Origin: a virus
Lineage: Duplodnaviria; Caudoviricetes
Strand: one strand, 5' to 3'
Length of the DNA stretch: 35,473 nt
IMG/VR virus record: IMGVR_UViG_3300042363_000337
Span: 1-35,473 of that record
Shown: positions 4,688 to 13,620 of the stretch, piece by piece
How positions within the stretch are numbered: the first letter of the stretch is position 1
How the letters are laid out: every line of letters begins with the position of its first letter
Translations under genes and position numbers: made by a program
Notes under the pieces: generated by a model
Databases searched by the model: none
What the model saw: only the letters and a program-made list of their open reading frames with translations
What the model was told of the DNA's origin: nothing

Positions 4688-5003
4688 GGTAAATCCTGCC
4701 AAGAACTTGACCAATTAGGAATCGAGATTGTGTCGGCCTTTTTGGAAGAAGTCAGGCTATGGTGAACCAAAACTCCACACCCTGTAGTTAAGCCACAAGG
4801 GGAAACACCCTGACTCCATTTTCGGGGGTCAGCAGTTTCTTCTTTCTTTGGCTCTCTCTTTCTCAAGGAAAACCTTGGGGGGATCAGGGGGGTGTTTCTC
4901 TCTGTCTTTGGTTTCTTCTTTACGGTTGGGACTGCAAAAACCGCACAAGCCCTCAAAAAAAACACGGTTGACACCATGCCGTTAGCGGAGCGATGTTCAT
5001 CCC

Positions 5004-11443: not shown

Positions 11444-12364
11444 TTACTTGGTGGTGTCAGCCAGGATGCTCACGACGCCGTTCTCAAGGAGACGGGTCGC
11501 ACCGAGAACCGCTGTGCTGCGGATCTGGAGGGCATGGGACTGGGTGGGCAGAACGTCCATGTAGGACTTCTTGCCGCCATCCACGACGACTGCCGCATTC
11601 TTGTGGTAGGCCACGCAAGTGCGGACATTCGAGGCGACTCCAAGCTGCTCGGAGCGAACCACCTTGAAGCCGAGGAACTGGTCCACATCGCCGTCCACAA
11701 GGGCGCGGACGCTGTTGAACAGATTGCTCGTGACCTCGGTGGTGCCGAGAAGATCGCTGATCTCCTTGGCGCTCACGATGAGAACGCGATCCTCTGCGGG
11801 GGCTTCGTTCGCATCAAGGATGCGCTTGGCCTCGCGGAGCTTGCCGATGGTGAGACCGCTGTTGGTAGCGGTTCCGCCGGCAGGGACGTAGTTCACGGCG
11901 ACCTGCTGTCCTGCGGGGAGGGCAACGGTGGTCGTGGTGTTGTTCAGACCAAACCCAGCGGAGGTGTTGGCTGTGTTGGTGATCGTCGCGGATGCGGTGA
12001 GGGCATCAATGAGGATCTTGTCCACCAGACGACCGTAGGCTGCGGCCTGCGACTGCATGCACTCCGAGGTGGGCAGGACAACGCTTCCGAGGAAGAGGTT
12101 GTCGAACTCGCTGAAGCGATTGGCGATGTCGAAGGGGACGGGGTAGGCCCAACGGGTCGGAAGGTCGCTGTTTGCCGTAGGGGTTGTGGCATTGCGGGTC
12201 GTGACCTGGGACATGGAGGCGAGTCCATACTGGTTGAAACGGACGGCGGCGCCATTCGCGGAGACGAACTTGGTCTTCTCCTTGAGGCGGCTCTCCATCT
12301 GTTGCAGCAGGTGCTGCCAGTTGGTCTCGTACTGGATAACGTAGTGATCGGGGATCTGAAGCAT
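11444..12364 (-). CDS. Major capsid protein
   Basis: LLQQMESRL, AAAYGRLVDKILIDA, ALVDGDVDQFLGFK, GATRL motifs of podovirus-type capsids. Confidence 0.92.
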   Translation of the reverse strand: MLQIPDHYVIQYETNWQHLLQQMESRLKEKTKFVSANGAAVRFNQYGLASMSQVTTRNATTPTANSDLPTRWAYPVPFDIANRFSEFDNLFLGSVVLPTSECMQSQAAAYGRLVDKILIDALTASATITNTANTSAGFGLNNTTTTVALPAGQQVAVNYVPAGGTATNSGLTIGKLREAKRILDANEAPAEDRVLIVSAKEISDLLGTTEVTSNLFNSVRALVDGDVDQFLGFKVVRSEQLGVASNVRTCVAYHKNAAVVVDGGKKSYMDVLPTQSHALQIRSTAVLGATRLLENGVVSILADTTK

Positions 12365-12559: not shown

Positions 12560-12587
12560 TTGCGGTTTCTGAGATGATTTGTAGAGT
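12560..12587 (+). promoter_or_regulatory. Sigma70-like promoter for the plus-strand ncRNA
   Basis: TTGCGG-N16-TAGAGT, 7 nt before the first stem at 12595. Confidence 0.5.
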
Positions 12588-12594
12588 CCTACTT

Positions 12595-12905
12595 GGAATC
12601 AGGCGAAGCCCGTAACACGGACAAGCATGGTTCATTATCTCGCCTACCAAAGAGGGCTTCATGCTCCGTGTAGGAGGAGTTACGGGATCGCCTCGGCGGT
12701 TCCAGCGCGGGAGTCGGTGCCGTATGGCATTCCTATCCCAGCATAAATCGGGGGAGGCAATGAGGGGCGAAACTGGTTGGCTTTTCGGCCATATCGGGAG
12801 TAGTAGCGACCTGATCCTCCTCCGACCATTTTTGTCGGATGATCTAAAGGGGGCAAGATCCTTCCCAATGGAGGGTATGGGGGTTCAAATCCCCCTCCGA
12901 CTTAC
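12595..12905 (+). ncRNA. Large structured RNA: ~110 nt rod plus multibranch domain ending in a tRNA-like T-arm
   Basis: Nested stems GGAATC/GGTTCC, AGGCGA/TCGCCT, CCCGTAAC/GTTACGGG, ACGGA/TCCGT, AGCATG/CATGCT; GAGTCGG/CCGACTT closes several hairpins and GGGGG-TTCAAAT-CCCCC. Confidence 0.65.
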
Positions 12906-12922
12906 ACATTTGCCGCCTGCCA

Positions 12923-13241
12923 ATCTTTAACAACTCTGTTAGCTGTTAAAGATACCGATGCGTTTCTTTAACAAGTAAGGTTTCCTATAGGAGACATTAA
13001 GGCCGGCAATGGGAGCTATAGCTGACATTACCTAGTCAAGTTACTATTCAAAAATAGTATAAGCCGCTTACTACCAATGAGTAGTGCGCAAGCAAGAGTA
13101 TTCGATGGTTCGCATTTAATAGGAACTGGGTCGGAACTGGGTCGTGGGTTTTTCCTAGCGTTTCTCCTAGCGTTTCTCCTGCACTATGCCGGCGTCTGTC
13201 CTTCCGAAAGGGACGCATTGCAAGAATTGTGTCCTCCGCAA
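12923..13241. repeat. Array of heterogeneous operator-like inverted and tandem repeats
   Basis: About ten adjacent 16-35 bp units, e.g. ATCTTTAACA-N11-TGTTAAAGAT, TACTATT-N4-AATAGTA, (GGAACTGGGTC)x2, (GTTTYTCCTAGC)x~3. Confidence 0.7.
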
Positions 13242-13276
13242 AAGCAAAACCCCCACCAGTTTCCCGGTGAGGGCTT
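13238..13276 (-). terminator. Intrinsic terminator after the SSB-like gene
   Basis: GCCCTCACCGG-GAAA-CTGGTGGGGGT then TTTGCTTTT. Confidence 0.75.
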
Positions 13277-13299
13277 CTTGCGTCCAACCAAGCTAAAGA

Positions 13300-13620
13300 T
13301 CAGAACGGGATGGAATCTCCATCTTCTTCATACTGCTTCTGGTAGCCGTTGGCCTTGGCCTTGTTGTGAGCGACCAGAGCAGGCGATGGAGGGTAGTCAT
13401 CACGCCTTGGGGAGTTGGCATAGCTTCCTCCTGCCGGCTTGTCGGTGATGGAGATAGTCAGCATCTCCTTGCCCGACTTGCTCATCTTTTCCCATGCGGC
13501 GATCTGGTACTCGATGCCTCCGAGGGTCATCTTGCCCGACCACTTGGGGGCTTTCGGGTTCTCGCTTCCCTTGAGGAAGAGGACGCCCTTGCGCTCGTTG
13601 TCGTAGGGTTGATTATCCAT
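13300..13620 (-). CDS. Single-stranded DNA-binding protein (DUF736-like)
   Basis: GVLF...KAPKWSG...IAAW...SGK...LTISI core and acidic DGDSIPF tail. Confidence 0.75.
   Translation of the reverse strand: MDNQPYDNERKGVLFLKGSENPKAPKWSGKMTLGGIEYQIAAWEKMSKSGKEMLTISITDKPAGGSYANSPRRDDYPPSPALVAHNKAKANGYQKQYEEDGDSIPF

Follow-up and report, generated by a model that had tools for sequence, protein, structure and literature searches.

Counter-defences known from phages are proteins or RNAs, and a countermeasure of bare DNA would be invisible to gene-based screens. Decoy or mimic logic underlies the Racr RNAs, the Ocr DNA-mimic protein and the nucleotide sponge proteins, but these are RNAs or proteins, and the stoperators of mycobacteriophages, which are multiple DNA sites on the phage genome, serve the phage's own repressor. 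To our knowledge, none of them is a library of host defence-gene operators. Moreover, no description of phage arrays of host defence operators was found in the open-licence literature. SoFic has been reported as a widespread standalone anti-phage defence gene with activity against T5. T5 breaks down the DNA of its host.

Binding to their own promoters is described for Fic-wHTH proteins in the reports on CccR (PMC9755527) and SoFic (10.64898/2026.07.09.737422); in the latter, promoter binding is shown for the Shewanella SoFic only. Pseudo-ToxI repeats of phage PhiTE are a non-coding phage sequence, a copy or a mimic of a host defence locus, with expandable repeats that acts against abortive infection (PMC3475682). 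Further comparison literature comprised 10.1101/2022.01.04.474952, PMC13373217, PMC12255303, 10.1101/2022.05.11.491447 and PMC11514479. Here we describe a packed array of operator-like sites in a podophage genome. As judged by sequence comparison, the array is real and widespread, and its units are traceable to host defence loci.

Results

The window, that is, the whole stretch of DNA analysed (35,473 nucleotides), is a virus record of IMG/VR (IMGVR_UViG_3300042363_000337) estimated to be 96% complete; its genes, a podovirus set, lie on the - strand. The capsid shares 30-37% identity with those of HTVC010P-like pelagiphages among the best 25 matches listed, and the phage is an HTVC010P-like lake podophage. 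There is no integrase among the window proteins scanned; a close relative (G784, with locus L020; L and G numbers are labels of the individual loci and virus records compared) is classed as a provirus. No host taxon emerged from helicase and endolysin homologues, from cluster members or from the Atlas. The host-genome samples were taken from Pseudomonadota, Cyanobacteriota, Bacteroidota and the phylum of a Syntrophales genome, and the phage's own host may differ from these.

The array (12923-13241) is situated in a 935-bp gap between the single-strand DNA binding protein (SSB) gene on its right (13300-13620, - strand, phrog_18154) and the major capsid protein gene on its left (11444-12364, - strand, phrog_3437, HTVC010P-like), and a separate IMG/VR contig (L001) is identical to the window across the entire gap. 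Together with a 5' half at 12594-12922, it makes up a non-coding cassette of variable content, in which it is the 3' half. The conserved left edge is a promoter-like stretch, TTGCGG-16-TAGAGT (12560-12587, + strand), beyond which conservation in the relatives stops at 12588; the right end is closed by a terminator-like hairpin after the SSB gene (13245-13282, - strand by its U-run), which is kept in the relatives. A consensus promoter and terminator scan of the window made no calls, including at 12560-12587 and 13245-13282. Elsewhere in the window, about 175 bp (4755-4931) are common, at 69% identity, to L664 and L666, both from otherwise unrelated phages.

The sequence-only reading had described about 320 bp with no credible ORF, filled with operator-like motifs of unrelated sequence. 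Much of this inventory was confirmed: none of the three ORFs over the array matches a PHROG, the two TATA-centred palindromes pair at 10/12 and 9/11 positions and the two TACTA-N8-TAGT sites at 7/9 and 6/9, the 11-bp tandem is exact in two copies (13122-13143) and the 12-bp tandem is present in three (13148-13183). Three looser sites bounded by (T)GC and GCA were not as written. The sites drawn at 13192-13217 and 13218-13241 pair at only 1/13 and 4/12 positions; the real unit in the former is 13197-13215 (unit F), and the latter contains the right half of unit E (13230-13240). For the one at 13085-13114, other phages suggest a better reading, a 9-bp linker and then a degenerate third TACTA-type site (13096-13113). 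The expected excess of palindromes over shuffled sequence held for strong palindromes (score >=7), of which there are 5 vs 0.64+/-0.76 in 300 dinucleotide shuffles (0/300 reach 5), but at looser thresholds it was not significant (22/300 and 24/300 shuffles). Since 5-6 strong palindromes are also present in a few other 319-bp segments of the genome, density alone fails to single out the array.

Unit A (12925-12973) consists of CTTTAAYA-N11-TRTTAAAG (12925-12951) and a third half-site 14 bp further on (12966-12973). Its three CTTTAACA half-sites (12925-12932, 12944-12951 and 12966-12973) alternate in orientation with spacers of 11 and 14 bp, as noticed before. This 8-11-8 geometry with a 14-bp gap is that of sites upstream of SoFic (Fic_N-Fic-wHTH) genes. 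The link to Fic began from one motif-A match chosen for its phage-like spacer and was then tested family-first. At this seed locus, the match lies in two copies before a Fic_N-Fic gene, whose protein matches SoFic structures in the PDB. In the family-first test, 59 of 60 Fic_N loci were placeable, and sites with at most 3 mismatches to unit A were found upstream of 8/59 genes (the seed locus being one of the 8), vs 1/59 for the reversed motif and 0/57 far upstream. More generally, 8-bp palindromes with an 11-bp spacer are present at 15/59 Fic_N loci vs 1/59 in the control, and the 14-bp gap to a further half-site recurs, among others, at L334, L341, L360 and L373. All five of the Fic_N proteins tested are SoFic in PADLOC (E 1e-115 or better). 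Half-site length, 11-bp spacer and 14-bp tandem gap thus place unit A, on sequence grounds, as a putative SoFic-type operator. When 301 Pseudomonadota genomes were scanned for motif A with at most 1 mismatch, it was found in 45, no more than the control.

In IMG/VR, about 800 stretches are estimated to match motif A, a share of them by chance, and 120 were retrieved. Among the 108 distinct viral sites, a third half-site at exactly 14 bp was counted 23 times, with 9 for the next offset; the 23 counts correspond to 22 loci, 3 in the window's clade and 19 outside it. No Fic gene was found in the window genome, in 5 relatives or in 10 further virus records with motif A, most of these records being incomplete. 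T7-like cyanophages also have motif A with the 11/14 tandem geometry, in the interval between the capsid and tail-tube genes in L207 and L261 and near psbA in L208. In addition, a further motif (TGTATAGAAAA...TTTATCGACA) is located near motif matches in L711, L718 and L202, and is similar to the site found upstream in a second SoFic subgroup (L336, L338, L339, L350).

Unit B, a candidate HipB-type operator subtype of the form ATGTC-N-S-CTATAG-S-N-GACAT, is present in two copies (12978-12997 and 13009-13028) 31 bp apart. An exact-match scan of 185,579 species genomes gave 45 matches, of which 22 belong to one alphaproteobacterial repeat element and about 9 are inside ORFs. Two of the 45 are situated 33 and 42 bp before hipB-hipA operons (L125, L140) of a Pseudomonas and an Acidipropionibacterium, with weaker extra copies at each, and a third match precedes an HTH_3 protein gene. 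For two hipBA matches among 23, we roughly estimate chance odds of ~1e-6 or lower, at ~0.7 hipA per genome. Multiple copies directly upstream of hipB-hipA at L125 and L140 suggest that unit B belongs to the hipBA operators. It would be a minority HipB type: among 39 hipA loci, motif B with at most 4 mismatches was found in 2, one of which is L140 itself. At these 39 loci, two other palindrome types upstream of hipA match units (D) in the relatives of the window. The window genome encodes no HTH_3 (XRE) protein, and the phage has no hipB or hipA. The alphaproteobacterial repeat is a palindromic element with the motif-B consensus as its core (L118, L122, L127 and 19 other loci).

Only the right half of unit E (13230-13240) is present in the window; the full 29-bp palindrome, TGCG-N2-GAATA-N7-TATTC-N2-CGCA, is whole in the relatives L003, L004 and L020 and is also found upstream of DUF4172-Fic genes, 1-72 bp before them in 3 of 16 loci that were hand-picked for annotation. 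The full motif has 90 viral matches in 66 contexts with a GC content of 0.28-0.68, and its spacing is symmetric in 88 of the 90, where one in nine is expected. Some prophage-like records have motif E together with its DUF4172-Fic gene. Unit F (13197-13215) is a 19-bp palindrome of the TGTCC(TT)-N5-(AA)GGACA type, imperfect here and perfect in L473. It matches the sites upstream of AAA_14-DUF4143 genes (PDC-S01): in 151 Bacteroidota genomes, motif F gave 2 matches (control 5), and both are exactly 20 bp before AAA_14-DUF4143 genes, which are homologous to each other and identified as PDC-S01 by PADLOC. This fixed distance in 2/2 matches points to unit F as a member of these upstream sites, in one subfamily only, since the motif is missing from 54 other DUF4143 loci.

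The 11-bp direct repeat (13122-13143) and the 12-bp direct repeat (13148-13183) are of a class found in or just after Schlafen/AlbA_2-HATPase_c_4-wHTH genes. Period-11/12 repeats of at least 3 copies are present at 12 of 30 HATPase_c_4 loci (two of them duplicates) vs 0, 1, 2 and 5 of 30 in four other sets, and are placed either at the stop codon or in the linker that leads to the wHTH. The 11-mer of the window also occurs in the phage arrays L711, L718 and L689; a close variant of it, in L688, L729 and L740, lies directly beside a tract with exact identity to a host gene (L437) over as much as 29 nt; the exact 29-nt word, inside that gene, is shared by L740, and the exact phage-host link by repeats runs through L740 and L437 only. 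No exact host copy of either repeat was found in the genome samples searched: the 11-mer pair was in 0/201 genomes, and the 12-mer was in 2/301, with viral matches nearly all in low-complexity coding sequence.

Unit C (13042-13113) consists of TACTA-N8-TAGT(A/G) sites at 13042-13059 and 13069-13086 and a probable degenerate third at 13096-13113 with a 27-bp period, as recognised by comparison with other phages. Its motif was found in 6 of 201 genomes, below the control; the best match in 39 hipA loci has 2 mismatches, and in 54 DUF4143 loci the best have 1 and 2 vs 2 for the control. Sites like ACTA-N8-TAGT lie upstream of the AAA_14-DUF4143 genes L769, L781 and L790, in threes in L790, and are a weak lead for unit C.

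To compare the locus among phages, 14 relatives and L096 were used (15 in total), the latter being the one new array from a metagenome scan with the terminator pattern, in which 5 of 53 loci were from the window's clade. The gap edges are kept (to 12588; from about 13241) and the inside varies, the gap totalling 384-1385 bp. Unit A is present in 11 of the 15 relatives, the B pair in 5, full E in 3 and C in 1, and the 11-mer, 12-mer and unit F are in none (0/15). Four of the 15 are without unit A, and two are without every typed operator unit. Units therefore come and go singly, as the sequence-only reading had anticipated, and the array is not conserved as one co-varying RNA or a coding gene, which would have spoken against it. 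More distant relatives (capsid identity 43-76%) have no SSB gene and mostly a short gap.

Outside the clade, a virus record (G497; 15.5 kb, GC 0.435) that matches only 1 of 40 window proteins tested and has a different terminase carries A, B, C, the 11-mer, the 12-mers and F in window order at 78-93% identity (L664). Its cassette follows a tRNA cluster, and an endonuclease VII gene is inserted between B and C. Moreover, the C block is common to the phage fragments L711, L462, L457, L453 and L517 at 77-95%, and units A and E recur across dozens of unrelated phages. A blastn search with the array in plasmid and cultured-phage sequences gave only chance-level matches. Other multi-unit arrays in unrelated phages (L576, L580, L633, L246 (31% GC phage); L229; L280; L303; L604) combine E, A and HipB-type palindromes. 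Endonuclease-like ORFs lie in or next to the cassette: L006:2876-3349, in L007 and L012 beside the promoter-like stretch, and L664:13726-14232 (endonuclease VII type).

The 5' half of the cassette, with tRNA-like and other RNA-like units, had been overlooked. In the window it contains a tRNA-like unit whose anticodon loop is replaced by a loop of 4 nt (12833-12903, + strand; found by ARAGORN; Rfam tRNA 32.8 bits) and an RNA-like unit (12748-12825, + strand) with an outer helix conserved in relatives, what we read as a kink-turn-like joint, and a swappable inner hairpin, which belongs to no Rfam family. Relatives have a second tRNA-like element and a tRNA-Trp in this half. The operator-like half begins where an outer stem of the RNA-like half ends. 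In the window (12594-12922, +), L002-L020, L096 and L664, this half is a row of swappable RNA-like units antisense to all genes: two tRNA-like kinds with 4-6-nt loops for the anticodon loop, a short-armed tRNA-Trp and the kink-turn-like helix with its variable hairpin. A 61-bp RNA-like piece (window 12631-12691) is found at 92% identity in L664:10027-10087, away from the L664 array. It is possible that these units are decoys for tRNA-targeting toxins.

Discussion

Four unit types (A, B, E and F) were traced to host genes. The motifs match at hipBA, SoFic, DUF4172-Fic and AAA_14-DUF4143 genes and, by repeat class, at Schlafen/AlbA_2-ATPase-wHTH genes. All of the host proteins so matched are enzymes of a toxic or nuclease-like kind that are coupled to a DNA-binding module. 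In raw counts from the genome samples, motifs A, C and F and the repeats are no more frequent than the controls, and the support is from position, not abundance. The earlier proposal that the sites are operators of host autoregulated toxin or defence genes largely holds; that the array benefits the phage at all, and whether by titration or by self-mimicry, we infer.

Because the sites match host toxin or defence genes that the phage lacks and recur in unrelated phages, the array is likely a DNA decoy. We regard it as rather probable that it is an operator-decoy library against self-regulating toxic host defence proteins, which would blunt abortive infection. The cognate host proteins would bind the phage copies. 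These proteins appear to be toxic enzymes tied to a DNA-binding domain (fused or via HipB) and held low by autorepression, and with such a low level a phage could absorb the pool as it replicates, each genome copy bringing 2-3 sites. In the weakest step, the enzyme would be restrained while operator-bound and set free once host DNA is lost, with the phage copies taking the place of 'self'. The multiplying phage genome would then hold the defence proteins, most simply as a substitute for the restraining host operator. Some facts count against the decoy reading. For CccR, the regulatory and toxic activities are independent according to the authors (PMC9755527), and for SoFic, AMPylation is reported to require the same dimer that binds DNA (10.64898/2026.07.09.737422). 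In addition, a single-gene toxin should be expressed more strongly when its autorepressor is titrated, to the harm of the phage, unless binding also restrains the enzyme.

Host repressors may instead be borrowed as roadblocks or sensors that tune phage transcription of the capsid gene or the RNA cassette. In favour of this, the array precedes the capsid gene when read along the coding strand and lies where a likely + strand transcript ends, and motif A lies between the capsid and tail-tube genes in the T7-like cyanophages L207 and L261. However, the sites are more than 330 bp from the promoter-like stretch, while the host copies are within about 130 bp of the start codon; the array position varies between phages (after the tRNA cluster in L664), units are freely lost in relatives, and the host genes have a scattered distribution (Fic_N in 41 and 35 of 121 genomes), all of which makes such regulation unlikely. 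Derepression by titration could also be the goal itself, yielding more antitoxin from hipBA or switching on host defences against competitor phages. HipB is labile and degraded by Lon (PMC3376134), so extra hipBA transcription could keep HipA neutral, and expression of CccR rose on operator mutation (PMC9755527). Yet most matched systems are single genes without a separate antitoxin, so more toxin would result, and there is no integrase among the proteins scanned, though one relative is classed as a provirus; we consider this goal distinctly unlikely.

The units could also be neutral scars or recombination debris of Fic, hipBA and similar cassettes formerly carried, as the prophage-like records with motif E and a DUF4172-Fic gene, the mere half-site of unit E in the window and the homing endonucleases inserting in the gap might suggest. 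Against such debris, which we consider very unlikely, there are no coding remnants, the packing is tight with its order kept in an unrelated phage, and half-sites are preserved while spacers vary. Similarly, the palindromes might be RNA hairpins of a non-coding transcript, such as an antitoxin or CRISPR-repeat mimic, in line with the RNA-like + strand units of the 5' half and with one motif-E arm position that pairs above independence (0.78 vs 0.59 expected). But the folding of the array is near shuffle level (z-scores -1.69 and -1.60; 7/100 shuffles as good), other variable arm positions are independent (pairing 0.39 vs 0.38 and 0.62 vs 0.60), which fits DNA sites because these would not covary, the TATA-centred sites leave no space for a loop, and the array matches no Rfam family. 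The view that the arms are not RNA hairpins is borne out at most positions, and the hairpin explanation is highly improbable. That the array serves regulators of the phage itself, or is an origin, is scarcely credible: small RHH- or HTH-like ORFs are seen by eye on the phage, but motifs B and C and the repeats are found nowhere else in its genome, the motifs move between phages of different gene sets, and host gene families are matched.

Returning to the operator-decoy library, a broader and more tentative possibility is that many phage lineages maintain, and exchange with one another, non-coding libraries of operators from host defence genes. On this somewhat doubtful reading, the libraries would be kept because a broad class of single-gene defences (SoFic, other Fic-wHTH, Schlafen-ATPase-wHTH, AAA-DUF4143 and HipBA) is restrained by its own DNA site and fires on loss of host DNA. 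If so, the arrays would be a new type of anti-defence consisting only of DNA, which in this phage is combined with tRNA-like RNA decoys, and each unmatched unit, for example unit C, would point to an undiscovered defence protein, so that tracing array units to hosts would be a route to new defence genes. It would also account for conserved intergenic palindromes in many phages (including the estimated IMG/VR stretches with motif A, some by chance) and make testable how single-gene systems such as SoFic sense infection.

Comparison with known systems

The host counterparts of units A and E are placed like the binding regions of Fic-wHTH proteins, about 100 bp or less from the start codon of SoFic-like genes, as described in PMC9755527 and 10.64898/2026.07.09.737422. 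Unlike the operators of SoFic and CccR, the window sites are on a phage without a Fic gene and away from a promoter, and the CccR site given in PMC9755527 is 10-26-10, a geometry other than that of unit A. The CapS and RptR operators were set aside as candidates, for they need TTAA half-sites 1 or 10 bp apart and three TAGCTA repeats, respectively, and the TTAA of unit A are 15 and 18 bp apart.

The hipBA operators resemble unit B and the D units of the relatives as palindromes upstream of hipB-hipA; the window phage is without hipB or hipA. Unit B is also similar to the boxes of C.Esp1396I in its central TATA and outer TG/CA, but its triad is AGC/GCT or TCC/GGA, not GAC/GTC, and its copies are 31 bp apart, not a 35-bp double box (PMC3488213, PMC2632904). 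The C-protein alternative offered for the TATA sites had to be dropped, as the triad of C.Esp1396I is missing; an RM C-box of this type was a rejected candidate in general, its GAC-TATA-GTC core being absent from these sites. An RNA mimic of the pseudo-ToxI or Racr kind and a CRISPR mini-array were also rejected, the array having no repeated or covarying RNA unit.

The RNA mimicry by pseudo-ToxI (PMC3475682) is the nearest precedent, and the array would be like it in the features given at the outset. Pseudo-ToxI is an expressed RNA antitoxin for one system, whereas the units of the window behave like sites in duplex DNA that would serve several protein families unrelated to each other.
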